Assembly: GCA_937127285.1 (NCBI GenBank)
Contig: CAKZLV010000055.1
Location: 159-64,158, forward strand
Origin: an uncultured Bacteroidota bacterium
GTDB lineage: Bacteria; Bacteroidota; Rhodothermia; Rhodothermales; Salinibacteraceae
DNA: 64,000 bases
Direction: 5' to 3'
A model generated the notes under the pieces. The model saw nothing but the letters and a program-made list of their open reading frames with translations. It made no database searches and was not told where the DNA came from. Below, one piece after another: positions 1 to 6,581 of this stretch; within the stretch, counting starts at the first letter, position 1; each line of letters opens with the position of its first letter. The translations under genes were made by a program, and so were the position numbers.

Positions 1-219
1 GCGGCAGACGCGCGGGCGAGGAAGGCTGACGCCCCCTCAGGCTGACGCCCTCTCCTCTCTTGTCCGAAGAGTCCGGGCCCGGAGAGAGAGTCCGGGGAGA
101 GTCCGGAGAGGGCCCGGAGACCGAAGGGCTGTCGTCCGGGAGCCTGTCGGCCGGGGCTATCGTAGGGGGCTATCATCCAGGGAAACGCCTTGCCCAGGGC
201 GAGAGCGTCAAGCGGTTGC

Positions 220-1071
220 TCAGCCGTCGTACGTCTGCACGCGACCGAAGAGATCGTGCGTCCCCCAGATGCCGCTGCGCAGGCACTCGAGCTGGACGAT
301 CTGGCTGTGGTCGACGAAGAGGTTTACATCCGGGCCGTAGTTCTGGACGTACCAGCTGAAGACGTGCGGGTCGGCCGCTTCGAACATGAGGTTCTCTTGG
401 CCGAGCTCGTCGATCATCTGCGCCGGGATCTCCGTCCGCATCTCCGGGACGTTCTCGGTGATGCCCTCACTCTCGATCATCACTTCGTGGACGCCTGCCT
501 CGAGGAAGCGCCGCGCCTGCGCGATGGCCTGGGCCGGATCCTGCTGGCCGATCTGCTCCAGCTCTTCGGTCGTCGTCGCCCCGCCGCCGGCTCCGAACTG
601 GATCCCGACCTCCGGCTTCGCCTTCAGGCCCGCCTCCTGAACGGTATCGATCAGGCGGAGCCAGTCCTCCGTCGGTAGCGTGATGAAGCCGGCCGAGATC
701 TCGACGACGTCGAACCCCAGACGGGCGCACTCGTCGACATACTGCTTCACGGCATCCTCGCCCTGTGTCAAGACGTACTCCATGAAGCCGCCGGTCGAGA
801 CCAGCACGTCGTGGTCGTGCGCGAGGTCGAGGAGCGATTGCACCGCTTCTTCCGGCATGAGACTGAACGATCCGCCGGCGAACTTCAGCCCGTCGACGTA
901 GTGGCCCATCGTCGACAGGACGTCCTCCAGGTAGTTCGGGCCCATGACGGAGTAGTACGGACCGCGGATTTCCGTCCGCCCGGTGTCGCGCGGCTTCTCG
1001 CCGCGGTCGTTCAGATCCAGAAACTGAAAGGCGCGGCGGGGGTCGCCTGTGTTGGGGGTCGGTTCGGTCAT
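220..1071 (-). CDS. comA: Phosphosulfolactate synthase (ComA family, PF02679-like)
   Basis: The ORF 220..1167 was trimmed to the ATG at 1071 (MTEPTPN...). It shows end-to-end resemblance to (2R)-phospho-3-sulfolactate synthase: LKFAGGS, GFDVVEISAG, ESEGI, and LMFEA...VNLF near the C-terminus. Confidence 0.8.
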   Translation of the reverse strand: MTEPTPNTGDPRRAFQFLDLNDRGEKPRDTGRTEIRGPYYSVMGPNYLEDVLSTMGHYVDGLKFAGGSFSLMPEEAVQSLLDLAHDHDVLVSTGGFMEYVLTQGEDAVKQYVDECARLGFDVVEISAGFITLPTEDWLRLIDTVQEAGLKAKPEVGIQFGAGGGATTTEELEQIGQQDPAQAIAQARRFLEAGVHEVMIESEGITENVPEMRTEIPAQMIDELGQENLMFEAADPHVFSWYVQNYGPDVNLFVDHSQIVQLECLRSGIWGTHDLFGRVQTYDG

Positions 1072-1170
1072 CGGGGAAGCGAGTCGTTGTTCGCAGATAA
1101 GCGAAGAGGATCGAATGCACCGGTCGCAACCGGCCGCTCGGGGAAGGTCGTGAGTGCCCTCCCGCACGGC

Positions 1171-2532
1171 CTACCGTTCGACCGCAGCAAGGAGATCGGT
1201 CAGTTCGTGAACCGGGAGCGTCTCGAGTTCATCGACCGCGTCGACCATGTCGGACCGCAGCGCCGCATCGGTGTGGGGCTCGGCGAGGCGAGAAAACTTC
1301 TCCGCCACCGTGTCCCACGCCATCGGGTTGGTGTGGAAGCCCTCGAAATCCTCGCGGTGCGTGCCGTACACGGTGTCGCCCACGTGGATGCGGACGTCGC
1401 ACGGCATCTTATCGGGAAAGGCCGCGCTGTAGTCCTCGTTCTCGCGAATCTCGACTTTCTGCAAGAGGCTCTGCACGTCGTCCGCCGCAATCCGGTCGGA
1501 GGCGTACTGTGCAGGAAGCACCTGGTCGTCCAGCAGCGCGACGGCCGTCATGTACGGCAGGCTGTGGTCGGCCTCTTCCTTCTCGCGAACGACGGTCTTG
1601 TCGCCCTCTTCCCCGCCGCCGATGATGTGATAGGCGACGTCGAAGGTATCGATCTCGATCCGGTCGATGGCGTGAGGGTCGATGCCCTCCTCCCGCTTGA
1701 TGGCGAGGGCGGCCTCGAGGGTCGACTGCGAGTGAAACTCGGCGTTGTACTTCTTGATGCTCGTACGGGTCACGCGCTCGAGGTCCTCGGCCGACCAGTC
1801 CAGGTCGAACTCACCGGCGATCGAGTGCATGTAGCCCTTGTTGCCCTCGAACACCTCGGGCGGACCCGTGATGCCGCGCCGGGCGAGAAAGGTGGAGTGC
1901 GTGGCCGTGAAGCCGGTCTCCGGATACGCCAGTCCCTTCCAGTTGGAAAGAGCACCGGTGCGCGTGACGCGCAGGGCGTTGTGCGCCGTGCCGCTAATCG
2001 CCACCGCATTGGCCGTCTGCTCCGGCGAAAGATCGAGGGCCTTGCTTGCCCCGGCCGCAGCGGCGTACTGCCCCTCCACGGTGTGGTCGAAGCCGTGATC
2101 GCGCACCGGCGCCTCGTCGCTGAGGCGGCACTGCACCTGGTACGCAACCGCCAGCGCCTCGAGGAGCGCCCGGCCATCTGCATCCGCGTATTCGGCCGTC
2201 GCCAGTACCGTCCCCAGGTTGTCGCTCGGGTGACACGTCTCTCCTTCCGCCAGGTAGCTGTCGTTGAAGTCGAGGTACCGGACGAGGAAGCTGTTGTAGA
2301 GCGCGGCCCGATCGGGAGAAGCGCCGCCGCCTCCGATCAGCGTTGCCGGGCCGTCGCCGTCGAACTCGTCGACGTGAGCGCGCACGCGGCGAACCGGCTC
2401 AGCATCCATCGCACCGATCGCGCACCCGAGCGAGTCGAGCACCCGGGCCTTGAGCTGCGCCTCGGCCTCGGCGGAGAGATCCGCGTAGGAGGCCTCGCTG
2501 ACAAATTCCGCCAGGTCGTGGACGAGAGCCAT
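1171..2532 (-). CDS. MmgE/PrpD family protein (2-methylcitrate dehydratase-like)
   Basis: This 453-aa ORF has the typical PrpD-family N-terminus (FVSEASYADLSAEA...KARVLDSLGCAIGA) and conserved blocks (HPSDN, FDHT, GTAHNALRVTR). Substrate specificity cannot be inferred. Confidence 0.85.
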   Translation of the reverse strand: MALVHDLAEFVSEASYADLSAEAEAQLKARVLDSLGCAIGAMDAEPVRRVRAHVDEFDGDGPATLIGGGGASPDRAALYNSFLVRYLDFNDSYLAEGETCHPSDNLGTVLATAEYADADGRALLEALAVAYQVQCRLSDEAPVRDHGFDHTVEGQYAAAAGASKALDLSPEQTANAVAISGTAHNALRVTRTGALSNWKGLAYPETGFTATHSTFLARRGITGPPEVFEGNKGYMHSIAGEFDLDWSAEDLERVTRTSIKKYNAEFHSQSTLEAALAIKREEGIDPHAIDRIEIDTFDVAYHIIGGGEEGDKTVVREKEEADHSLPYMTAVALLDDQVLPAQYASDRIAADDVQSLLQKVEIRENEDYSAAFPDKMPCDVRIHVGDTVYGTHREDFEGFHTNPMAWDTVAEKFSRLAEPHTDAALRSDMVDAVDELETLPVHELTDLLAAVER

Positions 2533-2555
2533 AAAACAGTCAAGCGGTTATTCGA

Positions 2556-2613
2556 AAGTCGGTTGGTGGAAGGTCGGTTGGTGAAGCGCTGGTTGGTGGA
2601 AGGTCGGTTGGTC
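2556..2613. repeat. Degenerate tandem repeat, 4 copies of a ~14-16 nt unit (AAGGTCGGTTGGTG)
   Basis: Read directly from the sequence, in the spacer upstream of the PrpD-like gene. Confidence 0.8.
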
Positions 2614-2981
2614 GGAGAGGGGTCGATCGCCGCACGTCGCTCGCGGCAGGATGCTCGCAGGAAGAGCGATCGAGAAACCGTCGCCCGGAAGAGACCCCGC
2701 AGCCGCAACCGGACCGCCTCGCCCCGCCGGCAGACCATGGGGGACGGCGGACGGTGCGGTCGCGTTCGTTGACGACGCCCCTCGTCCAATGCCACCCGAA
2801 GGTCTGCCGTCCTGCTGTTTTTCGTAACCGGCTTTTCTGCAGGTGGGTTGCCTCATTAAAGACAACGTTGCATTTTATCCGCCCAGGCGTGTCTCCGCAC
2901 CGGCGCGTGTCAAAACGGCCGGGTGCGGGGGGCGCGGCCGGGTGCGGGGGCAAGCGCGGGGCGTTGGGTCGGCGGAGCGGT

Positions 2982-3752
2982 CTACGCCGAGAGTTGACGC
3001 CGCACCTGAGGGCTGAGGCCTTCTGCCAGAAAGCGGTAGAGGCGGTTTTTCGTCTTCCGGAGTCGCCGGTATGCCTGCTTCAGATTCAGGATGAGCGTGA
3101 TGCGGCGGTGCAGGCAGTCCATTTCTCCCATCTCGTGCGTCGCCACCGGCCGGAAGCCAAGCACGCGCGTGTGGAAGTTGTAGGGGCTGTGCTCTTCCCC
3201 CTCGAACACGTCGGTGACGTAATGCGAGTAGCCGCGCTCGAGCGTATCCACCCCGGCCATGCGCATCAACCAGAAGACCACTCGGATGCGGTGCCGGTAC
3301 GCCGGCAGCACGGCAAAGCGCCCGATCTCCGCGATGTCGTTGTCACGGATGAACGCATCGACGCCAGCGCCGCCGAAGGACGGCGAGCCATCGGAATGAC
3401 CGTCTCCGGAATGACCGTCTCCGGAATGACCGTCTCCACCGAGGGATTCGAGTCCGTACTCCTGATACCGGTGCAGCGGAGGGGCGTAGTGGATGCGGAC
3501 GACGCCGGCCGGTTCGTCATCCACGGTGGCGACGATCCAGGTCACGGCGTCGTCGCTCAGGTCGCCGGCCGGAAACACGTCGCGGGCCGAGTCCACCCAC
3601 TGTTTTTCTTGCGCATAGGTTGTGGACAGGACGGTATGCGCCAGGTCTCGGTGGTGGCTGGTGGTGGCGCGAAACGCGGTCGTATCGGAACGGAGCATCG
3701 GCTCGGGAAGGAGAGGTCCGAAAGGCAGCGAGACGGGACGGCAAAGCAACAC
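2982..3752 (-). CDS. GNAT-type N-acyl amino acid synthase-like protein (OlsB/GlsB/FeeM-like)
   Basis: The 256-aa ORF has an alternative ATG at 3698 (MLRSDTT). The acyl-CoA N-acyltransferase-like core (AEIGRFAVLPAYR) resembles lyso-aminolipid synthases. It lies 15 nt downstream of a PlsC-like gene on the same strand and contains an in-frame (GDGHS)x3 insert. Confidence 0.6.
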   Translation of the reverse strand: MLLCRPVSLPFGPLLPEPMLRSDTTAFRATTSHHRDLAHTVLSTTYAQEKQWVDSARDVFPAGDLSDDAVTWIVATVDDEPAGVVRIHYAPPLHRYQEYGLESLGGDGHSGDGHSGDGHSDGSPSFGGAGVDAFIRDNDIAEIGRFAVLPAYRHRIRVVFWLMRMAGVDTLERGYSHYVTDVFEGEEHSPYNFHTRVLGFRPVATHEMGEMDCLHRRITLILNLKQAYRRLRKTKNRLYRFLAEGLSPQVRRQLSA

Positions 3753-3766
3753 GGCGGGGCGGCGCG

Positions 3767-4537
3767 CTACGAGGCAAAAGCGGGGGCGGGACGCACCCGG
3801 TCCGCCTCCCAGGTCGTACCCGAAAGGCGGGCGATGGACTGCATGAGGCAGCGGTGCAGGGTCTTCACGTCGTCGTGGGCCTGCGGTGCGATGGGCTCGC
3901 CCACGTGAACCGACAACGGCTCCCGGTCGGAGATCGGCGCACCGGGGTCGGTGTGATCCGGGAAGCGGATGCCGATGGGCAGGACGGGGGTGCGGGACTC
4001 ATGAGCGAGCCGGGCCGCCCCGCGGCGTCCGCGCAGCAGGCGGGTCGGGTCGCGGTGGGTGGTTCCCTCCACGAAGATCCCTACGGGTCTTCCGTCGTCG
4101 AGGCAGCGACGGGCGAGCGGATAGCCGTTGGGCGACGGGGCCAGCACCGTCCGTAGCGGCGTGAGGAAGCGCGGCCGCGCCGGCTTGGTGGCCACCGGAA
4201 TCACGCGAGCACAGCGGTACAAGAGGTAGACCGGCGGCAGCAGCATGAAATTCCAGTCGGCCAGAAACCGGATGATGCGACCACCGCGCAGCCAGGCGAG
4301 AAGCGCCGGAACCAGAAAAGCTTCCGTTCGCTGGCTATGGTTCAGCGCGGCGACGAACGGACCGTCAAGGCTCCGGAGTCGGTCGGCGCCCTCGACCGAG
4401 CGCACGCGGTGGCCGAGCGCCCAGACGGTTGCCCGAATAACCCATCGGGTGGACCGGCGGTCAGGTGGGTGCCGATACGAAGCCGTGAGGACGGAAGACA
4501 GATCCACGCGGGGGCGTCCAGTCGGTGACCGGGACAT
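3767..4537 (-). CDS. Lysophospholipid / 1-acyl-sn-glycerol-3-phosphate acyltransferase family protein (PlsC/OlsA-like)
   Basis: It has the acyltransferase motifs NHSQRTE (the NHxxxxD/E block), FVEGTT (the FPEGTR block) and VLPIGIRF. Confidence 0.7.
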   Translation of the reverse strand: MSRSPTGRPRVDLSSVLTASYRHPPDRRSTRWVIRATVWALGHRVRSVEGADRLRSLDGPFVAALNHSQRTEAFLVPALLAWLRGGRIIRFLADWNFMLLPPVYLLYRCARVIPVATKPARPRFLTPLRTVLAPSPNGYPLARRCLDDGRPVGIFVEGTTHRDPTRLLRGRRGAARLAHESRTPVLPIGIRFPDHTDPGAPISDREPLSVHVGEPIAPQAHDDVKTLHRCLMQSIARLSGTTWEADRVRPAPAFAS

Positions 4538-4739
4538 GCACCTCTGTAAATAGACGACACTTCTCCGGAAACCATTATCCGAACCGTTACCCCATCATTT
4601 TAAAACCGTTATCCAACCGTAAGCATGAGTTTACGTCGTCGGGCGCGCGCATTCGTACGCTGTCGGTGAACGGTTGACGGGCCGCCCCTGGCCGCGCCCT
4701 TCCGCCCCTTCCTCTTCTGCCGACGGCTCCCTCGCCTGC

Positions 4740-5378
4740 ATGGACCTTCCGACGATTCTCGACTGGGTGACGGACTACGCCGTGCTCATCGTGTTTGCAT
4801 GGCTGGCCCTCGAAAACACCTTGTTCCTCGGGTTTATCGCCCCGGGCCTGACGGTGCTGGTCGTCGTCGGTCTTCTCATTCAGACGGGGGATGTCCGGCC
4901 CGTCCCCGTTCTCCTGGCCGCGCTGGCTGGCACGTATCTGGGAGACAACGTGAACTATCTCGTCGGGAGGTGGGGGTTGCGACGATTTGGGTGGATCCGC
5001 CGGATTCTGGACGACAACGACGACGCCCGCCGCTTTATCGACCGCTACCCACGCGTTATCTACATCTTCTTTCACTTTCCCGTCTACCTGCGCACCGCGT
5101 TTCCGCTGACGCTGGGATCGATGCGCTACCCGTTTCGCACCTGGCTGTGGATCGACCTCGCAGCCGCTCCCCTCTTCGTAGCCGCCTTCACCGGCCTGGG
5201 GTACGGGCTGGCCCGGTACGTCCTGCAGGTTAACGACCTGGTGACGGCCGTCCGGGAGGTTGCCCGCACGGGCAACGGGATCATTCTCGTGTTCTCTCTT
5301 CTGTTTGCCTACGGAACGCTCAAGTTCGTCCGCCTCCTGTGGCGAAGCGCTCGCCGGGAGCCGGATTCGCGGCAGTAG
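4740..5378 (+). CDS. DedA/SNARE-associated family membrane protein
   Basis: The ORF was trimmed to MDLPTILDW. It has multiple hydrophobic helices and a DedA-like LENTLFLGFIAPG...YLGDNVNYLVGRW block. Confidence 0.8.
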   Translation: MDLPTILDWVTDYAVLIVFAWLALENTLFLGFIAPGLTVLVVVGLLIQTGDVRPVPVLLAALAGTYLGDNVNYLVGRWGLRRFGWIRRILDDNDDARRFIDRYPRVIYIFFHFPVYLRTAFPLTLGSMRYPFRTWLWIDLAAAPLFVAAFTGLGYGLARYVLQVNDLVTAVREVARTGNGIILVFSLLFAYGTLKFVRLLWRSARREPDSRQ

Positions 5379-5420
5379 CCCCACCGCCTGCCTGCCCCCC
5401 CCGGCGGCGCCCGCCCGCAC

Positions 5421-5483
5421 ACGCCCTTCCCGAGACGCCCTTCCCGAGACGCCCTTCCCGAGACGCCCTTCCCGAGACGCCCC
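5421..5483. repeat. Tandem repeat, 14-nt unit ACGCCCTTCCCGAG x4.5
   Basis: Four perfect copies lie at 5421-5476 with a partial fifth. The array is intergenic, between the DedA gene and the response regulator. Confidence 0.95.
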
Positions 5484-5704
5484 AACGGGCCGGGGGCTGT
5501 GGAGAGCGTCATTTCAACCGCTCTCCACGACGAACACAGCAAAATTTGGCCGCCGCCCCGGATCACGCTGCGGCGTTGCAGGTTACGCTGTTGTCACAAT
5601 CGAATGTACCAAGTTCGGTGTGCATCTCCTACATAGTAACGAACCTGTTTTCTAATCGTCACAGGTCGCTTCGCTCCGCTCTCACGACGCCCCCGTACCG
5701 ATAT

Positions 5705-6424
5705 ATGAATCCCTCCCGAAATCATTCGACGGAGACGCAAAACGCGCGGATCCTGATCGTAGAGGACGACCCGGAGGTCGGTGATGGACTGGAGGATTTC
5801 TTTTCGATCAAGGGATACAGCGTCTCGCGCGCTGCCGACGGCGAAACGGCCCTGCAGGAAATCACCACCTTGCCGCCGTACGACGTCGTTCTGCTCGACG
5901 TGGTGCTTCCCGAAAAGGACGGCTTCGAGATCCTGCGGGAGGCGCGAAAGGCGGGCGTCGACTCGCCTGTGATTATCCTGACCGTAAAGGGACAGGACAA
6001 GCACAAGCTGCGCGGCTTCGACCTGGGGGCCGACGACTACGTCACGAAGCCGTTCAACGCCGAGGAGCTGGCCGCTCGCGTCCGGGCGGTCCTGAAGCGC
6101 AGCCGCGACGAGGACGATGACGGCAACACATACTCCTTCGGCGACATTACCGTCGACTTTACGAGTCACACCGCCGAGAAAACCGGGGACGACGTCGAGT
6201 TCACCACCCTCGAGTTCGACATCCTGGAGTATTTTATCAACCACCGAGGCCGCACGGTAAGCCGCAAGCAACTCCTGCGAGACGTGTGGGGCATCAGCGG
6301 CGACATCACCACGCGCACGATCGACCGCCACGTCGCCAGCCTCCGCAAGAAGATCGAGACCGATCCCACCGACCCCGAATACATCGAAACCGTGTACGGG
6401 ATCGGGTACAAGTTTACGGGGTGA
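5705..6424 (+). CDS. OmpR/PhoB-family two-component response regulator
   Basis: The receiver domain shows ILIVEDD...VLLDVVLPEKDG...TVKG. The winged-helix output domain shows LTTLEFDILEYF, RTIDRHVASLRKKIE and IETVYGIGYKF. Confidence 0.9.
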   Translation: MNPSRNHSTETQNARILIVEDDPEVGDGLEDFFSIKGYSVSRAADGETALQEITTLPPYDVVLLDVVLPEKDGFEILREARKAGVDSPVIILTVKGQDKHKLRGFDLGADDYVTKPFNAEELAARVRAVLKRSRDEDDDGNTYSFGDITVDFTSHTAEKTGDDVEFTTLEFDILEYFINHRGRTVSRKQLLRDVWGISGDITTRTIDRHVASLRKKIETDPTDPEYIETVYGIGYKFTG

Positions 6425-6581
6425 GGAATGTGGGGGCTGGGGAGGCTTGGGGGCTTTGGACGCTGCGGACGCTTGGGACTCCATTTCTCAATGATCATTG
6501 AGCATTGAACATTGAGCATTGGGCGTGGATCAACGCTCCCCCAACTCTCAACCCTCAACCCTCAACCCACAACTCATCCCC

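Follow-up and report, generated by a model that had tools for sequence, protein, structure and literature searches.

Two abutting gene pairs in a Salinibacteraceae species: a probable aminolipid synthase module and a PrpD-like/HSA32-type module that appear independent in function

The closest described relatives of the gene cluster treated here belong to two unrelated kinds of enzyme systems. The ornithine/lysine lipid synthase OlsF, known from Serratia proteamaculans and Flavobacterium johnsoniae, combines an LPLAT/PlsC-type O-acyltransferase in its N-terminal part with a GNAT-type N-acyltransferase in its C-terminal part, and GlsA and GlsB, the glycine-lipid pair of Bacteroides, are homologues of its two domains carried on separate proteins (2026 review, PMC12971839). 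FeeM, an N-acyl amino acid synthase recovered from soil environmental DNA (PDB 2G0B), belongs to a different cluster, in which it cooperates with an acyl carrier protein, and it yields N-acyl tyrosine in free form instead of a di-acylated lipid. The other kind comprises the canonical phosphosulfolactate synthases ComA, YitD, and XcbB (EC 4.4.1.19; PDB 1QWG and 1U83), which are TIM-barrel proteins, and the MmgE/PrpD family with PrpD and IRG1/CAD. Plant HSA32, a ComA-family heat-memory factor that stabilizes HSP101, has a molecular function stated as unknown (bioRxiv 10.1101/2024.10.15.618377). Members of all these families meet in a stretch of 64,000 nucleotides (hereafter the window) from an uncultured member of the Salinibacteraceae (contig CAKZLV010000055.1, positions 159 to 64,158), in which four consecutive genes had been linked, in an original prediction, to sulfonolipid or aminolipid synthesis.

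We conclude that the four genes probably constitute two functionally independent operon-like modules, which are direct neighbors in this Salinibacteraceae species only. Module 1 is a putative aminolipid synthase composed of a PlsC-like acyltransferase and a GNAT protein, and module 2 is a PrpD-like enzyme with an HSA32-type member of the ComA family (called ComA1 here). Neither module appears to be tied to the other or to the synthesis of halocapnines.

Two tight gene pairs and a synteny breakpoint

The prediction of four genes on one strand was borne out by four open reading frames on the minus strand, all of them open and each with a match to a Pfam family (Table 1). The GNAT and PlsC-like genes are tightly linked, as had been supposed, and the PrpD-like gene and ComA1 form a likewise tight second pair, with a 449-nt spacer between the two. 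The similarity detected by blastn to at least 17 ComA/PrpD loci of Salinibacteraceae stops at 2523-2534 of the window, and the similarity to acyltransferase loci starts at 3028. These two limits place a synteny breakpoint inside the spacer.

A related-locus search yielded 19 ComA/PrpD loci, 17 of which are from Salinibacteraceae (Salinivenus and Salinibacter), and the PrpD gene was directly upstream of the ComA gene in every one of the 19 with enough flank. The whole set of loci with this gene order numbers 22 and covers five phyla: the 17 from Salinibacteraceae, one from Phycisphaerae (L011), those of two Bryobacterales metagenome-assembled genomes (MAGs; L029 and L030), one from Gemmatimonadota (L036), and one on a contig carrying Por_Secre_tail proteins (L038). 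GNAT, PlsC, and DedA genes were found in none of the 22 within the available flank, which spans 2 to 8 kb upstream of PrpD where the sequence reaches. Similarly, no ComA or PrpD gene was found near the acyltransferase pair in any of the eight loci outside this species, namely, those of Salisaeta longa, three other Salinibacteraceae-type contigs, two Verrucomicrobiota, a Xanthomonadales MAG, and an 8.8-Mb genome.

The same separation was observed at the level of whole genomes. Five other genomes were searched for both markers, and the two modules were together in none of them: the GNAT gene was present and a ComA1 orthologue absent in Salisaeta and in a Verrucomicrobiae genome, and ComA1 was present and the GNAT gene absent in Rhodothermus, Bryobacterales, and Salinibacter altiplanensis. 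Furthermore, only 5 of the 58 Salinibacteraceae genomes surveyed were found to carry the GNAT gene; in the family's largest genus, it was seen in 1 of 33. Thus, the proposed link of all four genes to a sulfonolipid found no support in synteny or in distribution, and the co-occurrence across genomes on which that proposal had been made to depend was not seen.

Within this species, on the other hand, the four-gene juxtaposition is probably real and not an assembly artifact, as is indicated indirectly by PrpD, GNAT, and PlsC variants of at least 90% identity that sit on longest contigs of matching sizes (63,539, 187,341, and 11,689 nt) in other assemblies. The assembly under study consists of 370 contigs and is 87.7% complete, and the window begins 158 nt from a contig end, such that the DNA beyond the ComA gene is not visible in this genome. 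From the boundaries of homologues, the true starts of ComA1 and of the GNAT gene are likely the ATG codons given in Table 1. An Rfam scan of positions 1 to 6500, in which a riboswitch or leader in the spacer was sought, gave zero matches. A promoter/terminator scan, uninformative at 65% GC, gave no minus-strand terminator in the spacer and one promoter-like site between the PlsC-like gene and DedA.

Table 1. Features of the cluster and its flank, with positions in the window
Feature	Position	Strand	Details
HSA32-type ComA-family gene (ComA1)	220-1074	minus	284 aa from ATG at 1074 (likely start); frame 220-1167, open to GTG at 1167
MmgE/PrpD-family gene	1171-2532	minus	453 aa; upstream partner of ComA1
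Spacer containing the synteny breakpoint	2533-2981		449 nt; tandem repeats at 2554-2612 and 2919-2960
FeeM-type N-acyl amino acid synthase-like GNAT gene	2982-3698	minus	238 aa from ATG at 3698 (likely start); frame 2982-3752, open to 3752
In-frame 15-nt repeat (three units) in the GNAT gene, encoding (GDGHS)3	3392-3437	minus	Tandem Repeats Finder (TRF), 3.1 copies, 100% match
PlsC/LPLAT-family acyltransferase gene	3767-4537	minus	256 aa; Pfam PF01553
DedA/VTT-family membrane protein gene	4674-5378	plus	Pfam VTT_dom, 43 bits; divergent from the acyltransferase pair

The acyltransferase pair compared with OlsF, GlsA/GlsB, and FeeM

Module 1 most likely makes an acyloxyacyl aminolipid, as an OlsF-type synthase split over two proteins. 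The part of the original prediction that recognized an OlsB/OlsA- or GlsB/GlsA-type pair therefore stands, upheld by a gene order kept in nine contexts, by fusions in OlsF order, and by FeeM as the top fold match; the part that connected the pair to ComA/PrpD or to a sulfonolipid does not.

The GNAT protein belongs to a family of proteins of about 219 aa, of which 562 homologues were detected. Among 50 homologues scanned against Pfam, 49 matched FeeM (PF21926) and 31 matched the OlsB-type family Acetyltransf_5; the GNAT of the window itself matched FeeM with 22.5 bits, which is below the gathering score of 27. An AlphaFold model of the protein (predicted local distance difference test [pLDDT], 86.6; predicted template modeling score [pTM], 0.84) had FeeM (2g0b) as its best PDB match in Foldseek (E value, 9.8e-9; TM score normalized to the target, 0.73-0.77; root mean square deviation, 3.1-3.4 Å), with acyl-homoserine-lactone synthases also among the fold matches. 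Judged by its modeled fold, the protein can be assigned to the long-chain N-acyl amino acid synthase type of GNAT enzymes, although its sequence identity to FeeM is only 14-16%.

The residues modeled with low confidence (90-101; pLDDT, <50) fall inside the insert formed by the GDGHS repeat, which sits in a disordered loop of the GNAT, and immediately past it. The copy number of this repeat differs among near-identical strains, with three copies here and in P0550 and two in P0001 and P0551, and distant GNAT homologues lack it.

The second member of the pair matched the Pfam family Acyltransferase (PF01553) with 45.5 bits. In an alignment with 13 homologues, fusions included, residues H67, E72, E157, and G158 were invariant; motif I in this subfamily accordingly reads HX4E (H67 and E72), not HX4D, and the EG(T) motif (E157 and G158) is kept. 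Public gene calls for this species often start the protein at Met98, giving a form of 159 aa (P0553, on 41 contigs, and P0555) that lacks the catalytic H67 and E72. These short calls look like start-codon misannotations, because the full 256-aa frame is open here and conserved across phyla.

The coupling of the two acyltransferase activities, adjacent or fused and in OlsF order, was found in nine contexts and six fusions. The PlsC-like gene lies directly upstream of the GNAT gene in all eight full-length loci outside this species, and the two overlap by 7 to 14 nt in three contexts. A search with the two proteins joined retrieved six natural fusions of 436 to 515 aa that contain both Pfam domains (P0244-P0246, P0253, P0255, and P0257), and one of them, P0244, shares 43% identity with the joined query over 94% of its length. 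NCBIfam gave no named match for P0244 beyond AGP_acyltrn. Four of the fusions were aligned, and in these the PlsC-like part comes first, at the N terminus, and the GNAT/FeeM part follows at the C terminus, as in OlsF; it is in domain families and domain order that the likeness to OlsF consists. The pair of the window shares with GlsA/GlsB the split into two proteins. It differs from OlsF and GlsBA in that its GNAT is matched best by FeeM and not by Acetyltransf_5 alone, in that HX4E takes the place of HX4D, and in the shortness of its proteins (256 and 238 aa).

If this assignment is correct, the PlsC-like enzyme with its HX4E dyad would attach a second fatty acid through an ester bond, which would yield an acyloxyacyl aminolipid, and DedA may help this lipid across the membrane. 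DedA and MprF-type families are associated with lipid translocation, and a DedA gene is divergent to the acyltransferase pair in five Salinibacteraceae-type loci (the window, Salisaeta L002, L004, L040, and L041). In the Xanthomonadales MAG (L042:3165-5657), the place of DedA, divergently upstream of the PlsC-like and GNAT genes, is taken by an MprF-type LPG_synthase_TM gene, which may be a nonhomologous replacement of the lipid-translocation partner. Besides, in the two Verrucomicrobiota loci (L006 and L044), the pair is convergent to trpF-dapB-dapA, with dapF also present in L006. This neighborhood makes lysine or diaminopimelate a possible head group; it may also be plain synteny between relatives. 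Descriptions of Salinivenus list unidentified aminolipids (PMC5167729), which is compatible with the proposed role of module 1 and is not evidence for it.

The PrpD-like enzyme and its HSA32-type partner

ComA1 shares the Pfam family (ComA, PF02679; 275.5 bits) and the TIM-barrel fold with the canonical phosphosulfolactate synthases, and its score against the NCBIfam equivalog of these enzymes (arch_ComA, TIGR03849) was 93.9, far from the cut-off of 280. Its matches to the two solved structures were likewise low (59 bits to Methanocaldococcus jannaschii ComA, 1qwg, and 44 bits to Bacillus subtilis YitD, 1u83, with about 25-28% identity), and it shared 46% identity (227 bits) with HEAT-STRESS-ASSOCIATED 32 of the date palm, Phoenix dactylifera (P0379). 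In an IQ-TREE phylogeny, the ComA1 group and HSA32 formed neighboring clades (support, 89/78), and the canonical synthases formed a separate clade (100/100). These results place ComA1, by sequence, among HSA32-type proteins and outside the canonical phosphosulfolactate synthase clade.

An alignment compared eight ComA1 sequences, drawn from eight phyla or orders, with four canonical synthases (M. jannaschii ComA, YitD, and the second ComA proteins of this genome and of Salisaeta). The canonical motifs VLD, KFGWGT, EVGxK, ExRE(S/T)G, APxK, and GLR(G/S) correspond in ComA1 to IRG, KFAGGS, EVGIQ, ESE with a six-residue deletion, AADP, and GIWG, respectively. The Lys of EVGxK, the ExRE(S/T)G loop, APxK, GLR(G/S), and GWGT were replaced or deleted in all eight ComA1 sequences. 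ComA1 has thus lost a loop and four cationic positions (Lys, Arg, Lys, and Arg), all of them without variation among the four canonical synthases, and it has gained an insert of 12 to 13 residues; the core acidic motifs EIS, EVG, FEA, and NL are kept. The date palm HSA32 has the same clade-specific deletion in the loop and agrees in most of the substitutions, having lost the equivalents of the Arg, the APxK Lys, and the GLR Arg, and it keeps the Lys at EVGxK and has a longer beta5-alpha5 loop than ComA1. The loss of four cationic side chains argues against a tri-anionic ligand of the phosphosulfolactate type. ComA1 is therefore probably not a synthase acting on phosphoenolpyruvate (PEP) and sulfite, as far as conservation patterns can tell.

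The earlier assignment, according to which the ComA of the cluster makes phosphosulfolactate, is doubtful for this gene also because the same genome carries a canonical ComA outside the window (ComA2, C347:17081-17788; Pfam, 303 bits). A canonical ComA is common to this genome, Salisaeta longa, and Salinibacter altiplanensis. The Salisaeta orthologue (L033:9456-10400; Pfam, 299 bits) matched the two solved structures with 208 bits (B. subtilis YitD) and 161 bits. Its neighbors are a MacB/FtsX permease, a LysM protein, and a deacetylase; no sulfonolipid genes stand beside it, and the context gives no clue to a pathway. A comB- or comC-like partner, which the original prediction had proposed to seek nearby or elsewhere, was not found next to ComA1: ComB phosphatase, ComC dehydrogenase, and XcbC lyase were all missing among the Pfam-annotated neighbors of ComA1 in seven loci.

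ComA1 was present in only 7 of 151 genomes of a phylum sample, and the ComA1 of the window grouped with a Gemmatimonadota sequence (support, 99/97) and not with that of Rhodothermus, a member of its own order. This distribution and this grouping suggest that the PrpD/ComA1 pair has spread horizontally.

The partner of ComA1 has the two-domain architecture of the MmgE/PrpD family (Pfam MmgE_PrpD_N, 239.6 bits; MmgE_PrpD_C, 145.3 bits), and its best PDB matches are 2-methylcitrate dehydratases. It scored far below the cut-offs of the NCBIfam PrpD equivalogs (144.7 against 950, 135.1 against 575, and 109.5 against 458), shared 27% identity with Escherichia coli PrpD over 379 residues in tblastn, and matched solved PrpD and CAD structures with 62 to 93 bits. 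The active-site Asp, Ser/Thr, His, His, Lys, and Lys of the family are all retained; we take these positions to be D93, T97 (Ser here), H103, H159, K207, and K272 of IRG1. The motif AEFHSQ resembles that of PrpD, and CHPSDN is also of the PrpD type. Because the active-site positions and the AEFHSQ motif are kept, the protein is probably an active hydro-lyase. It differs from PrpD in its low identity, in the absence of a prpBC context, and in its constant HSA32-type partner. With E. coli queries in tblastn, its own genome (87.7% complete) yielded one citrate-synthase-family gene and one weak PrpB-like match (27% identity), neither of them near the pair, and neither a second PrpD nor a prp operon was found. 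A role as a replacement for aconitase is not needed, as the genome has an AcnA orthologue (57.5% identity); the enzyme may still be a back-up under stress.

Only one context hints at what the pair produces. In the Gemmatimonadota locus (L036:4583-10293), the PrpD-like gene and ComA1 overlap by 4 nt and are followed without gaps by genes for E1alpha, E1beta, and E2 of a 2-oxoacid dehydrogenase, a contiguity that points to a 2-oxo acid as a possible product of the pair; a TauE-family gene lies two genes upstream. No fusion of ComA with PrpD was found among 1.84 billion representatives, where the matches were mostly fragments. One further match, a metagenome representative of 862 aa (P0398), resembles ComA1 in its first 183 residues (54% identity) and has no NCBIfam match in the remaining 680 or so, and it is either a fusion or a misassembly. 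In the literature searched, no paper linked phosphosulfolactate synthase with PrpD, apart from an unrelated mention in SAR11, and none linked the MmgE/PrpD family with HSA32.

We infer, with modest confidence, that the pair is a soluble two-enzyme unit in which a hydro-lyase cooperates with an enolate-stabilizing lyase or adding enzyme on a nonphosphorylated carboxylate. The PrpD-like enzyme would act as a hydro-lyase on a hydroxy-polycarboxylate, the acidic barrel residues retained in ComA1 would stabilize an enolate, and ComA1 would then either cleave the product, unsaturated or enol, or attach a nucleophile to it. Whether this amounts to an undescribed two-enzyme pathway with a chemistry other than that of PEP plus sulfite, for example, an Fe-S-independent dehydration with re-addition to, or cleavage of, a citrate-like acid that feeds a 2-oxoacid dehydrogenase, is a tentative suggestion which we consider possible rather than probable.

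Competing explanations and the halocapnine question

An explanation in which all four genes serve one pathway would have ComA and PrpD supply a sulfonated precursor (sulfolactate and, from it, cysteate) that the acyltransferase pair acylates to a sulfono-aminolipid or to the O-acylated sulfonolipid of Salinibacter. The common orientation of the genes, a spacer with no obvious terminator, and the recurrence of the juxtaposition in several assemblies of this species speak for it, as do the sulfur-containing aminolipids reported for roseobacters, which involve a PlsC-like O-acyltransferase (PMC8319176). It is largely refuted by distribution, since synteny and co-occurrence end with this species, the halocapnine producer Salisaeta lacks ComA1, and a single genome in the largest genus has the GNAT gene; moreover, ComA1 is of the HSA32 type with the cationic residues gone, and a canonical ComA and a condensing enzyme resembling serine palmitoyltransferase (SPT) are encoded elsewhere (C347 and C54). 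We consider it highly improbable. More credible, and still improbable, is a narrower role for module 1 alone, either in making a secreted N-acyl amino acid as a signal or biosurfactant or, through its PlsC-like enzyme, in the plain acylation of lysophospholipids; in both cases, no membrane acyloxyacyl aminolipid would be built. FeeM itself yields free N-acyl tyrosine, as the title of 2g0b states, and acyl-homoserine-lactone synthases share the fold, whereas the obligate pairing or fusion of the GNAT with an LPLAT acyltransferase in OlsF order, and the lipid-translocation-type membrane proteins (DedA or MprF-type LPG_synthase_TM) at the divergent position, favor the acyloxyacyl aminolipid.

For module 2, the principal competitor retains sulfonate chemistry: ComA1 would still join sulfite to PEP, or to an enol or unsaturated acid related to it, and the PrpD-like enzyme would stand in for ComB or XcbC in the following step, perhaps by the elimination of water or phosphate, with a small sulfonated acid as the product. 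The ComA fold and the strong Pfam match of ComA1 agree with this, a nonphosphatase, XcbC, can act after ComA in bacterial coenzyme M synthesis, where it removes phosphate by beta-elimination (PMC9457059), and the TauE family of the gene near the Gemmatimonadota pair comprises sulfite/sulfonate exporters. We nevertheless regard it as unlikely: four cationic residues and a loop of the canonical enzymes are lost, the genome already has a canonical ComA, no enzymatic role is known for plant HSA32, which falls in the same clade, and no conserved sulfite-generating genes lie beside the pair, the possible sulfonate-transport gene being near one locus only. Still less plausible is that the PrpD-like protein is an ordinary 2-methylcitrate dehydratase of propionate catabolism with an incidental ComA-like neighbor. 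Its PrpD-type motifs, conserved active-site positions, and best structural matches would suit such an enzyme, but it falls short of every PrpD equivalog cut-off, its genome offers only the single citrate-synthase-family gene and the weak PrpB-like match with no prp operon, and the pairing with ComA1 is kept across five phyla, in some with translational coupling.

Several observations weigh against the interpretation as two independent modules with the roles proposed above. The co-orientation of the four genes and the lack of a clear terminator in the spacer may allow read-through cotranscription in this species. ComA1 occurs without an adjacent PrpD in Rhodothermus profundi (L010) and in Ardenticatenaceae (L037). 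On the side of module 1, the FeeM score of the GNAT is below the gathering score, NCBIfam names neither of the two acyltransferases, and HX4E in place of HX4D is unusual. Finally, the reasoning on the ComA1 active site draws on conservation patterns, with presumed substrate-binding roles for the residues concerned. We also note that, in this one species, the new juxtaposition may allow the aminolipid synthase to receive a head group from module 2.

Halocapnines have been reported for Salinibacter ruber and Salisaeta longa (PMC5167729). The distribution of neither module fits these producers, Salisaeta being without a ComA1 orthologue. The AOS-family genes that might condense cysteate with acyl-CoA, which the original prediction had proposed to seek nearby or elsewhere, are not on the contig of the window; they were located on C113 (a Kbl orthologue) and on C54 (31296-32690, SPT-like). 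The latter encodes a pyridoxal phosphate-dependent enzyme whose best NCBIfam match is the CFB-type serine palmitoyltransferase (NF047600) with 499.5 bits, against a cut-off of 640. This gene, unlinked to the cluster, is a candidate for a sphingoid or halocapnine condensing enzyme.

Taken together, an annotation made by guilt by association is corrected, and the cluster offers no lead to halocapnine biosynthesis in Salinibacter. Better starting points are the SPT-like gene on C54, the AOS-family gene on C113, and the canonical ComA on C347, which is also a stronger candidate for genuine phosphosulfolactate synthesis in halocapnine producers. The region is a species-specific juxtaposition of a probable aminolipid synthase of the OlsF/GlsBA kind and one copy of a widely conserved, uncharacterized enzyme pair. 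The former is a compact and patchily distributed putative synthase of extreme halophiles, composed of an HX4E acyltransferase and a FeeM-type GNAT with DedA alongside. The latter, the PrpD/HSA32-type pair, is cleanly separated here from its neighbors and could give an enzymatic handle on plant HSA32. If its pathway is indeed other than that of PEP plus sulfite, solving the bacterial pair would reveal the long-sought biochemical activity of plant HSA32.

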